A stretch of 36,008 nucleotides of DNA from a virus. The DNA lies in UHGV virus genome UHGV-0138922. One strand, given 5' to 3'. The notes under the pieces were generated by a model. The model saw only the letters and a program-made list of their open reading frames with translations, was not told where the DNA came from and made no database searches. The position numbers and the translations under genes were made by a program. Positions 1-36,008 of the stretch are shown one piece after another. Every line of letters begins with the position of its first letter. The first letter of the stretch is position 1.

Positions 1-26
1 CGACAGAGGATAGAAAACTCGTTCAT
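1..26 (-). CDS. ycdY: 5' end of host YcdY-like gene, partial (continues beyond window start)
   Basis: Minus-strand ATG at 24-26 reads MNEFSILCR...; host-like GC content; sits directly downstream of the YcdX-like stop codon. Confidence 0.45.
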
Positions 27-49
27 TAATATATTTCCATTACTAGTAA

Positions 50-391
50 TTAAAGGTCTGCAAATTCCGCAATCGGTGCCATACCGCGAGATTCAAGGAA
101 GTTCAGTAAGCGGCGCGGAGAAACATTCAAAATGCGCTCTGGCGGAAAATCTACCGCGTCGAGGATTTTAAGACACTCTTCAAATTCACCCATGGTAAAC
201 GCGGTGTGAGAATCCGAGCCTAATGCCACCCAACCTCCAGCGTCACGTACCGCTGCGGCTACCGCACGACAATTGTCTTCACTTCCCTTACGTGAGTGTA
301 AAAAAGAGGAATTATTGATTTCCAGCGCCACCTGATGTTTCGCGGCTGCTTCAGCAACGGCTTTAACATCTATTTCATATTTCGGATTGCC
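50..391 (-). pseudogene. ycdX: 3' fragment of PHP-family phosphoesterase gene (YcdX-like), truncated at the prophage junction
   Basis: ORF-track protein from [29 protein letters not shown] through the GSDSH motif to ...PIAEFADL looks like the C-terminal ~115 aa of a PHP-domain protein; the upstream 55 codons of the 170-aa ORF are AT-rich and antisense to gene 431-700; GC content drops sharply near 392. Confidence 0.6.
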
Positions 392-430
392 TAATATCAT
401 GTACCCACAATAACACGAGAGGATACAACG

Positions 431-700
431 ATGAACATTACCAAAGCAATCCATAACTATGCTCGCCGCCGTGGAATCGAACTTCAACTCGAAGATGAGC
501 AGGTTAGATTCTGGGAGACTGAACAAGATTGTGAATGGATGTTCAGCTATTCGATTGCTCAATGTGGTTGCTTGTTCTGGAAAGGTAATGTGTATCTTCC
601 CCGCGATATTAAAGAAGAACTTCCGGCGATGATTGGCACCGATAAGAAGTTAAAGGAAGTCTTAGATTTTATCCACAAAGAGTTTATTAGCAAGAAGTAA
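431..700 (+). CDS. Hypothetical 89-aa Cys-containing protein at prophage end
   Basis: ORF with GAGAGGA ribosome-binding site about 8 nt upstream of ATG 431; followed by a hairpin terminator. Confidence 0.55.
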
Positions 701-1005: not shown

Positions 1006-1347
1006 ATGAAAAAGACTATCTACGCAATTATTGTTTCTGTGTGTGTTGGTGGCATCGGTGGATTTGTTTGTGGGTATGACTATTCCGATACTCAACATCA
1101 AGAGACTATCCGGTCAACTAAGGCTGAGATTAAGGATCTGAATCAGGAGATTAGCCAGTTAGAAAATGCTCTCTCACTCAAAGATAGTGAATATAGCGAG
1201 GTTTATGCAGAGAAACAAAAATATTGGAAAGAGAAAGATAATCTCGTCGTTTACGGGATGAAATTGTGTAAGAGCATGAAGGATGAGCGCAGTTGCTTAA
1301 TGGAACTTGCCCTTAAAGGTAACGTGACCATCGACTTCAAAGACTAA
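1006..1347 (+). CDS. Membrane-anchored coiled-coil protein (113 aa), accessory (moron-type) gene
   Basis: N-terminal hydrophobic segment then heptad-like region; AGAGGA ribosome-binding site; 5' region nearly identical to that of the next gene. Confidence 0.6.
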   Translation: MKKTIYAIIVSVCVGGIGGFVCGYDYSDTQHQETIRSTKAEIKDLNQEISQLENALSLKDSEYSEVYAEKQKYWKEKDNLVVYGMKLCKSMKDERSCLMELALKGNVTIDFKD

Positions 1348-1378
1348 TTAAATTCTAATAACAAGAGGAAATTCAATT

Positions 1379-1624
1379 ATGAAAAAGATTATCGCTGGTA
1401 TCGTTCTTTCTTTAGGTCTGGTTGGTGCTGCCACTGCCGATCAATATGTACAGGGTGATAGTGTTAAACGTGCAGCCGTTGTTACTTCCCTGAATCAATT
1501 GTGTAGTGAAATAGCTGTACTGGCTGGTCAACCTAATGATGAAGAACTTATTACCGCGTGTATCTGGAGTCATGTAGAGGATATTAATATTCGTGATGCT
1601 CGACTGAAAGGTAAAAAATACTAA
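1379..1624 (+). CDS. Small secreted protein (81 aa) with signal peptide
   Basis: MKKIIAGIVLSLGLVGAATA-DQ looks like a signal peptide with AxA cleavage motif; AGAGGAAA ribosome-binding site; terminator follows. Confidence 0.6.
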   Translation: MKKIIAGIVLSLGLVGAATADQYVQGDSVKRAAVVTSLNQLCSEIAVLAGQPNDEELITACIWSHVEDINIRDARLKGKKY

Positions 1625-1689: not shown

Positions 1690-3369
1690 ATGAAAACTAA
1701 ACTGTATTCGTATATTCGCTTCTCGTCTATGCGTCAGAATGATGGTTCGAGTTATGAACGACAAATCAGGATGGCTAGAGAGATTGCGGCAAAGTATGAC
1801 CTTGAACTGGTAAATGATTATCAGGATCTGGGTGTATCTGCGTTTAAGGGTGCTAACTCTAAAACAGGGGCGCTATCTCGTTTCCTTGATGCAATTGGTA
1901 GATCCGTTCCTGTTGGTAGCTGGCTATTCATCGAAAACTTGGACCGTTTATCCCGTGCCGATATTGTCAGTGCGCAGGAGTTATTCCTTTCAATCATCCG
2001 TAGGGGAATAACCATTGTTACTGGCATGGATAACAAGATCTACTCGCTGGATACTGTTACCGCTAATCCGATGGACCTGATGTTCTCCATCCTTTTATTC
2101 ATCCGTGGTAATGAGGAAAGCCAGACTAAGCGCAATCGTACTAACTCAAGCGCACTGATTAAGATTAAAGCCCATCAAGAAAATCCCCAGAATCCGGCAG
2201 TGGCAATCGAGGAAGTTGGAAAGAATATGTGGTGGACGGATACCACTTCCGGTTATGTGCTGCCTCATCCGGTGTACTTCCCTGTTGTTCAGGAGATTGT
2301 GGAATTACGGAAGAATGGACGTTCAACCGCCGAAATACTGGATCACCTTAACGAGACTTATACACCGCCACCAGCGGTTAGCAACAAGAAGCATTCAAAA
2401 TGGTCACGGGCAATGGTTGAAAGGTTGTTTCATACCCGCGCTTTGATTGGTATCAAGGAGGTCTCTGTAGATGGCGTTAACTATGAGTTAAAGGATTATT
2501 ACCCTCGTGTTATTGATGACCCTACGTTCTATCACCTTAAGAAAAATATTGGTGCTAGAGCATGGAACTTCGGAGACAAGGAAGAAGTTAAACCGATCCC
2601 CCTGCTTAGTGGTATTGGCCTATTGAAATGTGATCATTGCGGTTGCGCTATGGTTAAAGTGAAGGGAACGAACAAACGTTCTGACCAGTATCGTTATACA
2701 TGTGATGCGACCCGTTCACGTAGACTTGATTGCGAGCATCCAAACTGGAGTTTTCGAGGTGATCAATTAGAGAAAGCTGTATTGCAATTGCTGGCTGATA
2801 AAATCTGGATTGCTGAGGACAAGGCTAATCCGGTTCCGGCGTTGAAAGTACAGGTTGATGAAATATCACGCAAGATTGATAACCTGATTGCCCTTTCTGC
2901 TATGACAGGAGCAACGAAGGAGCTAGCCGATCAGATTACTACCCTCAATAGCGAGCGTGAAACACTCTACAATCAGATCAAGATGGCAGAAGAGGAAATG
3001 TATTCTGTTGACTCTCAAGGCTGGGAGAAGCTCGCAGAATTTGATTTAGAAGATGTTTACAACGAGGAACGACTAAAGGTCCGGTTTAAGATTAAGCAAG
3101 CTCTAAAGCGGATCGGGTGTAGCAGGATTGACAGAAACAAAAACTTGTTTGTACTGGAATACATCGATGGAAAGACCCAGAGAGTTGTAATAGAAAATTC
3201 AAGAGGAACGAGGAAAGGACAAATCTTTGTCGATTTGAAAACTATCAATGATAGGCAGATTCTGGAGAGTAACGGGCTTGTTCTGCATCCATGTTTAGAC
3301 ATGCTGACAGATAAGAACTGGAAACCAGAAGAGGAAATACCAGGTCCATTACAGGAATTTGGAATTTAA
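1690..3369 (+). CDS. Large serine recombinase (phage integrase)
   Basis: N-terminal resolvase-type catalytic motif YSYIRFSSMRQ; long recombinase domain; Cys-rich zinc-ribbon (CDHCGC...YRYTCD...C) and C-terminal coiled coil; ATG 1690 is the likely start (track start 1675 is TTG). Confidence 0.88.
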   Translation: MKTKLYSYIRFSSMRQNDGSSYERQIRMAREIAAKYDLELVNDYQDLGVSAFKGANSKTGALSRFLDAIGRSVPVGSWLFIENLDRLSRADIVSAQELFLSIIRRGITIVTGMDNKIYSLDTVTANPMDLMFSILLFIRGNEESQTKRNRTNSSALIKIKAHQENPQNPAVAIEEVGKNMWWTDTTSGYVLPHPVYFPVVQEIVELRKNGRSTAEILDHLNETYTPPPAVSNKKHSKWSRAMVERLFHTRALIGIKEVSVDGVNYELKDYYPRVIDDPTFYHLKKNIGARAWNFGDKEEVKPIPLLSGIGLLKCDHCGCAMVKVKGTNKRSDQYRYTCDATRSRRLDCEHPNWSFRGDQLEKAVLQLLADKIWIAEDKANPVPALKVQVDEISRKIDNLIALSAMTGATKELADQITTLNSERETLYNQIKMAEEEMYSVDSQGWEKLAEFDLEDVYNEERLKVRFKIKQALKRIGCSRIDRNKNLFVLEYIDGKTQRVVIENSRGTRKGQIFVDLKTINDRQILESNGLVLHPCLDMLTDKNWKPEEEIPGPLQEFGI

Positions 3370-3441: not shown

Positions 3442-4617
3442 TTAGAGAGCCTCTAAGAGAGTATTAAAGTATTCATCCATTAAATCAGGACTGTCGTCAT
3501 CAATACAGAAAAATTCCGGTTTATTGATGCCGTAGAAGTGAGTATGTAGCTTGAATGTATCGTCATCAAATACATCTTTCGGGGATACCCACATATTAGC
3601 CTCGTCCGGTTGATTGGTTAGGTAGTCATAAACCAGTTGCTGTAAGTGTGGTAACTCATCAATAGTCAGAGTTTCCGACCATCCATCCTTGAAATCTTTG
3701 TAGGGTGCTGCATGAGTCTTGAAGCGTTGTTTTACTTCATGCTCTAAATCAACGGCTTTCCAACCATCCTCAAACTCATGAGTAAAGATTAATCTGTGAG
3801 TGAAGTTGCTCTTTCTGGTTTGCTCTCTCATTCGTTCTTCTGGTTTCCGGGTAGTGATTCCAAATTTAATAAATTTGTCATCTAATAATTGAATGTAGAA
3901 ACTAGCCTTACCCTGATAAGTCCGGTTAGACAGTTGCACCAGTTGGTCTTTAATGCAAAGCGGACAAGTGAAAGAATCAGCACATCTTAAATGAGATTCC
4001 CATTCGTGGTTATGTGTCTTGCAATAGGTTTTAAATTTAACATCCTTTAGGTGTGGGGTGTTTATGATGAATCCTTTGAAGGTGTAAGGCGTACTCTCGC
4101 AACGTGCATTGATGATTGTCTCTTTGTCCTTAATAACTTCATCAAAAGTCTTGCCACTTCTTACCCGTTGGGATTTTTCAGCCATACAGATTTTGCAATC
4201 AAAATCGAAATCATCTTTGAGTGCATGTAATAGAGATGGCGTCATGATTTGATTGTGTTCAGGGCACAAAACACGGGCTTTCGTTCTATTTCGCCCTTTC
4301 CATTCTCCTTGCCATCCGAGGAATTTCTTTCCCTTCTCATTACAACGAGATTCCATTTTCAACCATACAGCCTTTTCAGTCTGGAATAACTCACCCCCGT
4401 TAGTATCTTCCAGTTTGCGTAATTTGTAGTCCTTATATTCTTGTGTATCTAAATTGTAGATTCGAAAGTAAGTGTGATTACCCTTCCACGGTAGGATAAA
4501 TCCACCAAATACGAAAGCAGGTTCCAGTTTAGCGATGATTCGTTGTTGGTACTCTTCCGGCGATAAACCGCGAGTTTTCTTAACAAAAGGAATTTCGGCA
4601 GCGTAAGCAAGTTTCAT
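3442..4617 (-). CDS. Zn-ribbon + GIY-YIG (T5orf172-like) nuclease-domain protein, 391 aa
   Basis: GIY-YIG-like motifs SFYIQ...KFGITTR...E; several CxxC pairs; start moved to the internal ATG at 4617, which has an AGAGGAAA ribosome-binding site (track start 4728 lacks one). Confidence 0.6.
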   Translation of the reverse strand: MKLAYAAEIPFVKKTRGLSPEEYQQRIIAKLEPAFVFGGFILPWKGNHTYFRIYNLDTQEYKDYKLRKLEDTNGGELFQTEKAVWLKMESRCNEKGKKFLGWQGEWKGRNRTKARVLCPEHNQIMTPSLLHALKDDFDFDCKICMAEKSQRVRSGKTFDEVIKDKETIINARCESTPYTFKGFIINTPHLKDVKFKTYCKTHNHEWESHLRCADSFTCPLCIKDQLVQLSNRTYQGKASFYIQLLDDKFIKFGITTRKPEERMREQTRKSNFTHRLIFTHEFEDGWKAVDLEHEVKQRFKTHAAPYKDFKDGWSETLTIDELPHLQQLVYDYLTNQPDEANMWVSPKDVFDDDTFKLHTHFYGINKPEFFCIDDDSPDLMDEYFNTLLEAL

Positions 4618-4676
4618 AGTAGTTTCCTCTAAAATAATAAGCTCACTACTATTTATTAGAGAAAATTGTCTTACTA

Positions 4677-4704
4677 TTGCATTCTCTATCTGAATGTGTA
4701 TAAT
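4677..4704 (+). promoter_or_regulatory. Sigma70-like promoter (TTGCAT-N16-TATAAT)
   Basis: Hexamers read directly from sequence, about 65 nt upstream of gene 4772. Confidence 0.45.
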
Positions 4705-4771
4705 ACGCGACCCTAAATCCCAAACCAACCATATTGAGGTTATGCCTATAAGTTAAAAAAGTGAGGTCTAT

Positions 4772-5341
4772 ATGATTCCAGTAATGGCTAAAGATATTGT
4801 TTTTACTCCTAAATCCTCCCGTGCTGTAACTCCATCGGCATTAGAACAACGCATTCTGACTCACATCAAAGAGAAGGACTTACCGTTAGTCTTTCATGGC
4901 TTTCTGGGTGAGTTTAAAGGGCTTCATTCAAGAATTGCTCTTACATGTACCCGATGCGGCAATAGAGCCGACAAATCAGCTACCAACCTGCTTAATGAAG
5001 GTAAACGCTGTGCATGTCTCAAAAGTGATTACTTTCAATATAAAGCGGGTGTGCCTTATCTCTATGTAATGAAATCAGGGGATATTGGTAAATTTGGTGT
5101 TACAAAGTCAATCATCAAGCGACGCATTAATCTGGGTGTACGCAATCCCGGTCATAACTTTGATATTGTCTTTGCTGGTGAAATGCCATCAATGAAACAT
5201 GCTTTAGCCACTGAAAGAGCAATAAAGAGATTACTGGATGTGGGTATAGGCGGGATTGAATACGGCAAAACTGAAACATTCCACTACTGCAATAAATCAC
5301 TAAACAATATAAAGAATATTGCAAGTGTGGAGTGGAACTAA
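4772..5341 (+). CDS. Zn-ribbon + GIY-YIG nuclease-like protein (189 aa), paralog of 3442-4617
   Basis: CxxC...CxC then PYLYVMKSGDIGKFGVTKS...R...E (GIY-YIG spacing); collinear similarity to the 391-aa protein. Confidence 0.65.
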   Translation: MIPVMAKDIVFTPKSSRAVTPSALEQRILTHIKEKDLPLVFHGFLGEFKGLHSRIALTCTRCGNRADKSATNLLNEGKRCACLKSDYFQYKAGVPYLYVMKSGDIGKFGVTKSIIKRRINLGVRNPGHNFDIVFAGEMPSMKHALATERAIKRLLDVGIGGIEYGKTETFHYCNKSLNNIKNIASVEWN

Positions 5342-6831
5342 TGCAAGATATTAAAATTCATTTTCAAGATTACAGTTTCGTTAAGGTTGATTGCTCTCCT
5401 TCTATCGGAATGGAATTAAGAGATTATTTCTCGTTTGAGGTTGAAGGGGCTAGATTTAGCCCCCGTTACAAGTATTCCGGCTGGGATGGAAAGATAAGAC
5501 TGTTTACGCATGAAAATACCTTGCCAATCGGATTATTGAAAACATTAGGTATCTTCGCTAAAAACATGGGCTATAGCGTATGGGTAGACCCCAGATTGCT
5601 TGAGAAGGAAGATGTAACCAAAGAATCAATTGATTCATGGATTGACTCTTTAGAAGTGTATTCCGGTAGCAATAAAATCAATCCTTACTGGTATCAAAGG
5701 GAGGCAGTATTTCAGGGTATCCATAATCGCCGTAGAATGCTGGTTCTTCCTACCAGTGCCGGAAAGTCATTGATTGCTTGTATGCTGTCTCGTTGGTACT
5801 TAGAGAACTACACCGGAAAGATTCTAATCATTGTCCCGACTACATCGCTGGTGGTTCAAATGAGGGATGATTTTGTCGATTATAGGCTATTCCCTTATGA
5901 AGCAATCCATACAATGATGAGTGGTAGCGGGAAACATCCGGGAGACAGGTTAATCACTGTTTCAACCTGGCAATCAGCTTGCAAGATGCCTCCTGAATGG
6001 TTCCGACAATATGGAATGTTGATAGTTGATGAATCACATCGCGCTAGTGCAAAGAATATCACCAATATCATCAACGGAATGAATCACTGTCAATTCAAGA
6101 TTGGTATGACTGGTTCCCCGAAAGAATCAAAGTGCCATCTCATGCAGTATGTCGGGTTGTTCGGTGATATTCAGAAGATAGTAGCAATCAAGCAATTGAT
6201 GGATGACGGACAAGTTACCCAGCTTAAAATTAATGCTCTCTTCCTTAAGTACAAAGATGAAGAATGTAAAGCAATGCGGGGCAAAGATTATCAGGAAGAG
6301 ATTAAATTCATCAATGCTCATAAGGTAAGGAATAAACTGGCTTGTAATTTGGCCTTAAAACTCGCCAGGAAGCAAGAAAACGTATTTTTGATGTTCCGGT
6401 ACTCTAAGCATGGAAAAATGCTTTATAATGCATTACAGCGCGTTTACGATAAGGTTTATTACGTTTCCAGTGAGATTACCACCGCCGAACGCGATGCCTT
6501 AAAGAAAATGGCTGAAAATGAGAAAGGATTGATTGTAGTTGCTAGCTATGGTGTTTTCTCTACTGGCGTTTCAATTAAGAATCTTCATCATGTTATTTTT
6601 GGTCATCCGGTGAAAGAATCGACCATTGTCCGGCAATCAATAGGACGTGCTCTTAGGAAACATGGTAGTAAGGCAATTGCTGTTGTATGGGATTTGATAG
6701 ATGTGATTTGTTCGAAAGACAAGAAAGGAAAATATACACGCAAGAATTATGCTTTAACTCATGGCCTCCAGAGAATCAATACTTACATATCAGATCGCTT
6801 CGAATATGCCACGAAAACAATCGAGATTTAA
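5341..6831 (+). CDS. uvsW: T4 UvsW-like SF2 (DExH) DNA helicase
   Basis: Walker A LPTSAGKS, motif II LIVDESH, motif III MTGSP, motif VI IGRALRKHG; N-terminal region MQDIKIHFQDYSFVKVDC...WDGKIRLF resembles the UvsW N-terminus as I recall it; ATG overlaps the upstream stop (TAATG); track alternative start is GTG 5332. Confidence 0.82.
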   Translation: MQDIKIHFQDYSFVKVDCSPSIGMELRDYFSFEVEGARFSPRYKYSGWDGKIRLFTHENTLPIGLLKTLGIFAKNMGYSVWVDPRLLEKEDVTKESIDSWIDSLEVYSGSNKINPYWYQREAVFQGIHNRRRMLVLPTSAGKSLIACMLSRWYLENYTGKILIIVPTTSLVVQMRDDFVDYRLFPYEAIHTMMSGSGKHPGDRLITVSTWQSACKMPPEWFRQYGMLIVDESHRASAKNITNIINGMNHCQFKIGMTGSPKESKCHLMQYVGLFGDIQKIVAIKQLMDDGQVTQLKINALFLKYKDEECKAMRGKDYQEEIKFINAHKVRNKLACNLALKLARKQENVFLMFRYSKHGKMLYNALQRVYDKVYYVSSEITTAERDALKKMAENEKGLIVVASYGVFSTGVSIKNLHHVIFGHPVKESTIVRQSIGRALRKHGSKAIAVVWDLIDVICSKDKKGKYTRKNYALTHGLQRINTYISDRFEYATKTIEI

Positions 6832-33000: not shown

Positions 33001-33118
33001 ATCTTTCTTGAACGCTAGTGAGAGAAAGCGAACAAAAAGGAGAACGTTAGTTCGAGTTTTATATTCTATGGTCTGTGTGGTCAAATGCTTTTGCAAATCA
33101 TACACTTACGTGATTGAA

Positions 33119-33240
33119 GTGTAGGGTTAGTGTAGGTGTGTAGGTTTCATAGTGTAGGTTTGGACATGTTCTAGTGTAGGTTTACTGGCTAGTGTAGTGT
33201 AGGCCAATCCCTTTCATGTGTAGGTTTGTAGTGTAGGTTT
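33119..33240 (+). repeat. Iteron array: 8 direct copies of GTGTAGG(TTT)
   Basis: Copies start at 33119, 33130, 33138, 33152, 33174, 33197, 33218, 33231. Confidence 0.8.
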
Positions 33241-33330
33241 TTCATCAAAAATTTTGATAAAAAATTCTTGTATATTATTTAACCAAAAAATCATCAAAAA
33301 TCGCTGTAAGTTAATGATTTAAAAGGAATT
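33241..33330. promoter_or_regulatory. AT-rich tract with ATCAAAAATTTTGAT palindrome and repeated ATCAAAAAT half-sites
   Basis: Perfect 15-bp palindrome at 33244-33258; half-site copies near 33292 and 33395. Confidence 0.55.
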
Positions 33331-33354
33331 GTCAAAAGGTCACCGTGCTATAAT
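33326..33354 (+). promoter_or_regulatory. Promoter with extended -10 (TGcTATAAT)
   Basis: TG at 33346-47, TATAAT at 33349-54; weak -35 GAATTG/TTGTCA. Confidence 0.55.
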
Positions 33355-33434
33355 AGGTTATAAAGGTTGATAATCCTGATCAGCCGTTTTCACACAAAAA
33401 TTTTGATAGTCATTTCTCGCCTAGATCATGGGTA

Positions 33435-35958: not shown

Positions 35959-36008
35959 TAGTATTTTGCCTCTAGTTAGACAAACATCCTCTAAAAATTC
36001 AAATCAGA

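Follow-up and report, generated by a model that had tools for sequence, protein, structure and literature searches.

The 36,008-nucleotide viral sequence UHGV-0138922, analysed over its whole length and referred to here as the window, opens with a few hundred bases that look bacterial and passes abruptly into phage DNA, with a large serine recombinase gene 1.3 kb further in. Where exactly does the host end and the phage begin, and which recombinase made the join? The reading that we favour, with a probability of about 0.93 and on the strength of sequence comparisons, is that window positions 361-414 are the attL of a temperate phage, probably integrated into the E. coli gene ycdX by the large serine recombinase that it encodes itself at 1690-3369.

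Host DNA at the left end and the breakpoint

Positions 1-388 are E. coli chromosomal DNA and comprise, on the minus strand, the start of the chaperone gene ycdY (its first 26 nt including the start codon, at 1-26) and the 3′ part of ycdX (50-388, with the stop codon at 50-52 and codons 134-245). The ycdY assignment follows the RefSeq annotation of matching loci and the 100% identity to an empty-site strain, while the ycdX fragment is annotated as a 'missing N-terminus' pseudogene in lysogens, its codon position being computed. Bases 1-388 or 1-391 are matched at 90-100% identity in 5411 of 5426 complete E. coli genomes. The empty site of APEC E18055 is 100% identical over 1-388, and there an intact ycdX of 738 nt lies between ycdY and ghrA. 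A match that continues through base 700 is found in just 27 of the 5426 genomes, and GC content falls from 0.49-0.52 (segments within 101-400) to 0.33-0.39 (segments within 501-1000). The initial annotation had described YcdY-like and YcdX-like host DNA giving way to AT-rich phage DNA, and this holds at the nucleotide level: the left end is a real prophage-host junction, and at such identity chance is no consideration.

Alignment with the empty site and with the lysogens places the last certainly host base at 386; the TT at 387-388 is common to both partners, and phage DNA runs from 389. That host DNA ends here had been recognised, but the position given, about 392, was 3 bp off because phage GCC (389-391) matches host TCC at two of three bases by chance. 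Similarly, it is indeed a C-terminal part of ycdX that is kept in the window, amounting to 112 codons (134-245) rather than 115, and the junction lies not just before GNPKYEIDV but inside it, at G-N|PKYEIDV, with the Asn codon rebuilt across the join. The statement that the break falls within the PHP domain rests on the crystal structure (PDB 1M65, which covers residues 1-245 of the 245-residue protein) and not on Pfam, whose PHP match spans YcdX 5-77 only.

No intact ycdX adjoins the prophage: complete lysogens have a 5′ ycdX pseudogene at the far prophage end, beside ghrA, and this fragment terminates in ...HPGNPNVVNPQ-stop. The right junction with the 5′ part of ycdX, which the initial annotation expected, is thus present in complete lysogens and lies beyond the window, about 1-1.1 kb past the equivalent of base 36008 in the closest complete lysogen, FDAARGOS_1267. 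The identical junction recurs in 27 independently assembled complete genomes, every one with a matching attR, which leaves an assembly chimera with a practically negligible likelihood.

The truncated ycdX frame (ORF 50-562, minus strand) stays open for 57 codons more into phage DNA, overlapping the first phage gene on the opposite strand, and is named variously in RefSeq as 'hypothetical protein', 'phosphatase' or a ycdX pseudogene. An in-frame ATG at 400-402 (minus strand, M-I-L-G-N-P-K..., three codons upstream of the junction) was considered as a designed restart for the C-terminal YcdX fragment and rejected, as there is no ATG at this place in the Salmonella P′ arm; we regard it as accidental.

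Attachment sites and crossover

The attL at 361-414 consists, by alignment with the empty site and the lysogens, of a host B half-site (361-386), the TT (387-388) and a phage P′ half-site, GCCTAATATCATGTACCCACAATAAC (389-414). It reads ...CATATTTCGGA-TT-GCCTAATATCATGTACCCACAATAAC..., as against ...CATATTTCGGA-TT-TCCGGGATGG... for attB and ...GTTATTG(T/G)GGGTTGAC(A/T)ACGTT(T/C)GGG-TT-TCCGGGATG... for attR, the latter taken from complete lysogens. Immediately around the core the three sites are ...GGA|TT|(G/C)CC in attL, ...GGG|TT|TCC in attR and ...GGA|TT|TCC in attB. TT is preceded by A in attB and attL (window 386) and by G in attR/attP, and it is followed by T in attB and attR and by G or C in attL (window 389 is G); the exchange is therefore confined to TT, 387-388. 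This crossover dinucleotide has the same limits in four complete attL/attR pairs and corresponds to the AA of ycdX codon Asn134 on the coding strand.

Joining the phage halves gives a deduced attP, GTTATTGTGGGTTGACAACGTTTGGG-TT-GCCTAATATCATGTACCCACAATAAC, whose P arm is taken from other strains since attR lies outside the window. Between its 26-bp arms, 18 of 26 positions agree in dyad symmetry, and the outermost 12 bp of each, 15-26 bp away from TT, form a perfect inverted repeat: one copy, ACCCACAATAAC, occupies 403-414, and its partner, GTTATTGTGGGT, belongs to the opposite end of the prophage, beyond the window. The dyad symmetry of attB is weaker (10/26, mainly TCCG..AT beside the core). 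The P′ arm is also found in prophages inserted in hicB, described below, and in one IMG/VR prophage contig. Serine integrases act on a dyad-symmetric attP and an attB that share a non-palindromic 2-bp core and no extended homology. The comparison of attL, attR and attB gives the signature of such an enzyme, a 2-bp crossover flanked by a dyad-symmetric attP; the attP, as deduced, is short and imperfectly dyad-symmetric around a non-palindromic 2-bp core.

In the mechanism that we propose, which is the established one for serine integrases, integrase dimers would bind the attP of about 54 bp on the circular phage genome and the attB inside ycdX, and then synapse. Both sites would be cut with a 2-bp stagger at the central TT, and rotation of the subunits followed by religation would yield the attL of the window and an attR about 37 kb away, just beyond it. 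ycdX would be split after codon 133, such that a lysogen should lack YcdX activity; precise excision would restore the gene and would probably need a phage directionality factor. That the protein encoded at 1690-3369 catalyses these steps, and that the prophage is excisable, we infer.

The large serine recombinase

The recombinase gene (1690-3369, plus strand) encodes 559 aa from an ATG start that RefSeq relatives also annotate, and its product is predicted to comprise a catalytic domain, a recombinase domain, a zinc ribbon with a helical hairpin and a C-terminal beta-rich domain. Pfam recognises the resolvase-type catalytic domain (PF00239, Resolvase; E = 1.3e-14, residues 6-153), the recombinase domain (RD; PF07508, E = 1.1e-8, residues 198-287) and the zinc ribbon (ZD; PF13408, Zn_ribbon_recom, E = 1e-10, residues 310-368). 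The active-site motifs read Y8-I-R10-F-S12...Q16 and D85-R86-L-S-R89. Across 25 homologues, down to 29% identity, Y8, R10, Q16, D85, R86, R89, C314, C317, C338 and C348 are invariant and S12 is conserved in at least 90%, a pattern consistent with the active site of a serine recombinase and with a zinc ribbon that has four Cys ligands.

Searched by sequence, the PDB contained no match to the integrase at E <= 1e-3. An AlphaFold model (mean pLDDT 80.7) has a long helix at residues 127-164, in the alpha-E position before the RD, a predicted helical hairpin (382-406 and 410-437) at the position of the coiled-coil motif of serine integrases, and an extra C-terminal beta-rich domain at about residues 472-533. 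When this model was compared with the PDB using Foldseek, the top 20 matches were all serine integrases (Bxb1, PhiC31, LI and others; E = 5e-17 to 2e-6, alignments of 330-650 columns), with low TM-scores of 0.2-0.35. Low values are expected for flexible multi-domain proteins. The presence of a large serine recombinase gene 1.3 kb inside the prophage, as first annotated, is therefore upheld by three Pfam domains, conserved residues and fold matches.

The junction could conceivably have been made otherwise, by a tyrosine integrase, by transposition or by illegitimate recombination, with the serine recombinase gene a bystander encoding, for example, a resolvase or invertase. In favour of this, the YbcK-like large serine recombinases of lambdoid E. 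coli phages (31% identity) are labelled by some annotators only 'YbcK' or 'hypothetical protein', and not integrase. In five complete lysogens, however, no tyrosine integrase is annotated and the large serine recombinase is the sole annotated integrase; the only transposase gene belongs to one IS1, in 14EC007, which sits among the tail genes, well away from either end. No more of the target than the shared 2 bp is duplicated, the attP has the dyad architecture of serine-integrase sites and the allele of the DNA-binding domain switches exactly with the insertion site. We consider a bystander role extremely unlikely, and retain the encoded serine recombinase as the probable author of the junction.

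Integrase variation follows the insertion site

The integrase gene is present in 57 complete E. coli genomes, which fall into three bands of nucleotide identity. All 26 genomes in the 97-99% band are ycdX lysogens, and all 20 in the band at about 93% carry the same phage family in hicB, the antitoxin gene of hicAB. At about 87%, seven of the eight insertions are in hicB; the eighth, that of FDAARGOS_1267, is in ycdX and goes with a ycdX-type DNA-binding cassette. Lysogens with the hicB insertion total 31 genomes, with integrases 92-93% identical. Both a ycdX-type and a hicB-type prophage are found in NZ_CP063332.1 (BS74R-D) and in NZ_CP157110.1 (UTME-9), so sister phages can co-reside in one chromosome.

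Six ycdX-type integrases are separated from three hicB-type integrases by 25 positions, 22 of which lie between residues 196 and 351. Among 50 cluster representatives from E. coli and Shigella, the block 196-351 is inherited essentially as a unit and residues 482, 483 and 507 assort independently. Three hicB-type variants that have ycdX-type residues at 196, 351 or 482/483/507 all adjoin ydcR, which marks the hicB site. This leaves at most 20 candidate specificity positions, at residues 203-349, inside or between the Pfam RD and ZD. In the DNA, the P′ arm of attP is nearly equal in the ycdX and hicB types and the inner P arm differs. The catalytic domain (residues 1-160; window 1690-2170) exists as two alleles, different at about 30 of 160 positions, that reassort independently of the DNA-binding cassette and the insertion site, and the integrase gene is therefore a recombinational mosaic. 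This accounts for the mixed targets of the 87% band.

The crossover register adopted for hicB takes the last two T's of TTT as the core, with 15 of 26 dyad matches; a core at the first two T's, with only 8 of 26, was rejected. The sister prophages in hicB and codB share with the ycdX type the phage backbone, the gene order and a TT core, and their P′ arm is nearly identical. Insertion splits hicB at about codon 102, leaving hicA and the N-terminal two-thirds of hicB intact beside attR; the HTH DNA-binding domain of HicB (Pfam HTH_3, 88-134) is therefore cut off.

Co-variation of site and cassette is the pattern that would be expected if the serine recombinase chose the site. The initial proposal of serine-integrase insertion into the coding region of ycdX is thus sustained by the 2-bp crossover, the dyad in attP, the sole annotated recombinase type and a cassette allele that tracks the site. 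We lean, by a narrow measure, towards a natural change of target in which the 20 or fewer differences at residues 203-349 may direct insertion into ycdX or into hicB, the inner P arm changing to match and the catalytic and C-terminal regions reassorting freely. Retargeting of serine integrases is actively pursued in genome engineering. If the cassette alone sets the target, it would give those who engineer these enzymes a compact map of specificity determinants already validated by evolution, and the natural ycdX/hicB/codB series, with its known att sites, offers directly testable material for integrase retargeting.

Other hosts and targets

Integrases of Salmonella enterica with 72-76% protein identity lie beside csgDEFG-ycdZ-ycdY and a truncated ycdX, and the Salmonella attL, ...ACTTTGGA-TT-CCCTAATATTATACACCC..., falls in the same Asn codon of ycdX. 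A third target is codB, the cytosine permease gene next to codA, which is used in E. fergusonii by an integrase about 74% identical and in E. coli 39EVA by a related one; attL at the codB site reads ...CCCGGTTGCC-TT-GCCTAACATATCATTCCAACCACATTAAG. A scan of genome contigs for the integrase in other genera yielded only a 512-bp fragment, 99% identical, in JANCAF010000145.1 (Actinacidiphila cocklensis, an actinomycete), which is probably E. coli contamination of that assembly. A prophage of Cronobacter sakazakii is listed at ycdX in a table entry (Grim et al. 2013, PMC3680222), giving the same host gene in another enterobacterial genus; the entry names the gene only. Literature searches with the att sequences and with ycdX plus prophage located no account of the ycdX site in E. 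coli. In the available portion of the supplement text of Durrant et al. 2022 the att sites and the integrase N-terminus were both absent; the catalogue itself probably includes the ycdX-site integrase.

The prophage body

Positions 389-36008 hold the left part, about 35.6 kb, of a siphovirus-like element with genes for a tail tip, a tape-measure-size protein, capsid, portal, large terminase, a Rha regulator and a UvsW helicase. The lengths of the prophages, measured or bounded, are about 35-38 kb. Relatives carry large terminase, portal, capsid, tail tube, tail tip, tail fibre, endolysin-like M15 peptidase and Rha regulator genes, the gene set of a functional temperate prophage, and the window has equivalent long ORFs, the last 1.1 kb or so of the prophage being beyond it. 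No deposited phage genome resembles the prophage, the best match being 31% identity for the integrase and 43% for the capsid (phage DCP80).

This gene content bears on whether the junction is a working attL or the fossil of an element fixed as a defective remnant, without excision. A free attP, as in a circular or virion form, was sought with three patterns among viral contigs and with two among metagenome contigs; none was found, the only match being a hicB attL on a prophage contig; the excised form was likewise absent from the viral and metagenome contig collections, and some relatives have IS1 insertions or pseudogenes, all of which a defective remnant would explain. Set against this, the att half-sites in the window and the integrase reading frame are intact, and long ORFs matching the annotated structural genes of relatives are open. 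The element is sporadic (27 of 5426 genomes), its strains come from a variety of hosts and countries and its sequence is diverse, which suggests recent independent acquisition, and double lysogens exist. A defective remnant is in our view unlikely, and we continue to read the junction as the attL of a temperate phage.

At the left end, the first prophage gene (431-700, plus strand; 89 aa, no Pfam family) is conserved in that position in ycdX lysogens and is followed by a terminator-like hairpin at 710-730. Two small genes encoding 113 aa and 81 aa, both with hydrophobic N-termini, occupy 1006-1624 (plus strand), a region whose gene content varies among lysogens. At the right end, beyond the window, the prophage gene closest to attR encodes 185 aa with an acidic C-terminus and no Pfam match, and by eye resembles a small terminase or HTH protein. 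In the circular form this gene and the first gene (431-700) flank attP divergently, and the 185-aa product could be a directionality factor or a packaging protein.

Beyond the integrase gene, 3442-4728 (minus strand) and 4772-5341 (plus strand) are two genes with CapR-homology domains, one of them also with a T5orf172/MUG113 domain. They vary in presence and size between lysogens, with a GIY-YIG nuclease or unrelated genes in their place elsewhere, as expected for mobile nuclease-like cassettes. The UvsW-type helicase gene (5332-6831) is about 75% identical in nucleotide sequence to its counterpart uvsW in T4-like phages of the RB49 group, and a UvsY homologue is also found in relatives. Such cargo is unusual for a temperate siphovirus of 37 kb and suggests gene exchange with virulent T4-like phages. 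Towards the right, TAGTGTAGGTT occurs as a direct repeat five or more times within 33114-33420, with irregular spacings of 13-44 bp, and is followed by an A/T-rich stretch with repeated TCATCAAAAAT and AAAAATTTTGATA motifs, the whole within a gene-free region of 1.2 kb. The arrangement resembles a replication origin of the iteron type or an array of regulator-binding sites.

Probable consequences for ycdX and the host

YcdX belongs to the PHP family of enzymes and has a zinc site of three metal ions (Teplyakov et al. 2003, as cited in PMC7046640). The insertion separates residues 1-133 from residues 134-245 of this single-domain enzyme and, judging from the split, should abolish its activity; ycdY and ycdZ may be affected by polarity. 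Prophage insertion leaves about 0.5% of complete E. coli genomes (27 of 5426) without an intact ycdX.

Might the insertion serve as a regulatory switch, with reversible excision controlling whether ycdX, and perhaps ycdY/ycdZ downstream of it, is expressed? Active lysogeny of this kind, in which a conditional, non-lytic and precise excision restores the split gene, has its models in Listeria phi10403S, which resides in comK, and Bacillus SPbeta, in spsM, and sigK is a further gene of this type. The target position is codon-identical in Escherichia and Salmonella, excision by serine integrases is precise, so that the split gene would be restorable, and there is a reported link between swarming and the adjacent gene ycdY (as cited in PMC7046640). 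Sister phages nevertheless use the unrelated genes hicB and codB, which makes target choice look like sequence opportunism. Salmonella lacks the in-frame ATG of the junction, and outward promoter-like signals are not above chance, with three sites found against 4.8 ± 2.2 expected. We consider such a switch very unlikely.

Comparison with known serine integrases

A serine-integrase prophage within a coding gene belongs to a well-known class and the junction is a routine one; the use of other targets by its relatives is the more useful by-product. The nearest proteins in deposited phage genomes are the YbcK-type recombinases of the lambdoid E. coli phages 4A7, Perceval and PhiR47_2 and those of the Burkholderia phages JC1, Bcep176 and Bcep22, with 28-31% identity over 80-94%. 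These are too distant for target prediction, and their phage backbones are different from that of the ycdX prophage.

Bxb1 of a mycobacteriophage, which inserts into groEL1, and PhiC31 of a Streptomyces phage are full-length fold matches (E = 5e-16 and 1e-15, respectively) that share with the present system an attB inside a coding sequence and a non-palindromic crossover dinucleotide. Sequence identity is 14-18%, and the extra C-terminal beta-rich domain is a feature of the present integrase. The integrases of Listeria A118/phi10403S and of an L. innocua prophage (PDB 4KIS), which insert into comK, have the same three domains, mid-gene insertion, a 2-bp crossover and a dyad-symmetric attP; the fold match is at E of about 1e-8, but identity in the structural alignment is only about 14%. 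Conditional excision has been shown for the Listeria comK phages; the ycdX prophage differs from them in its Gram-negative host and its target gene. To the small set of Gram-negative serine-integrase systems it adds an attB/attP pair mapped with precision, and a lineage of temperate phages of E. coli and Salmonella that seems not to have been described before.
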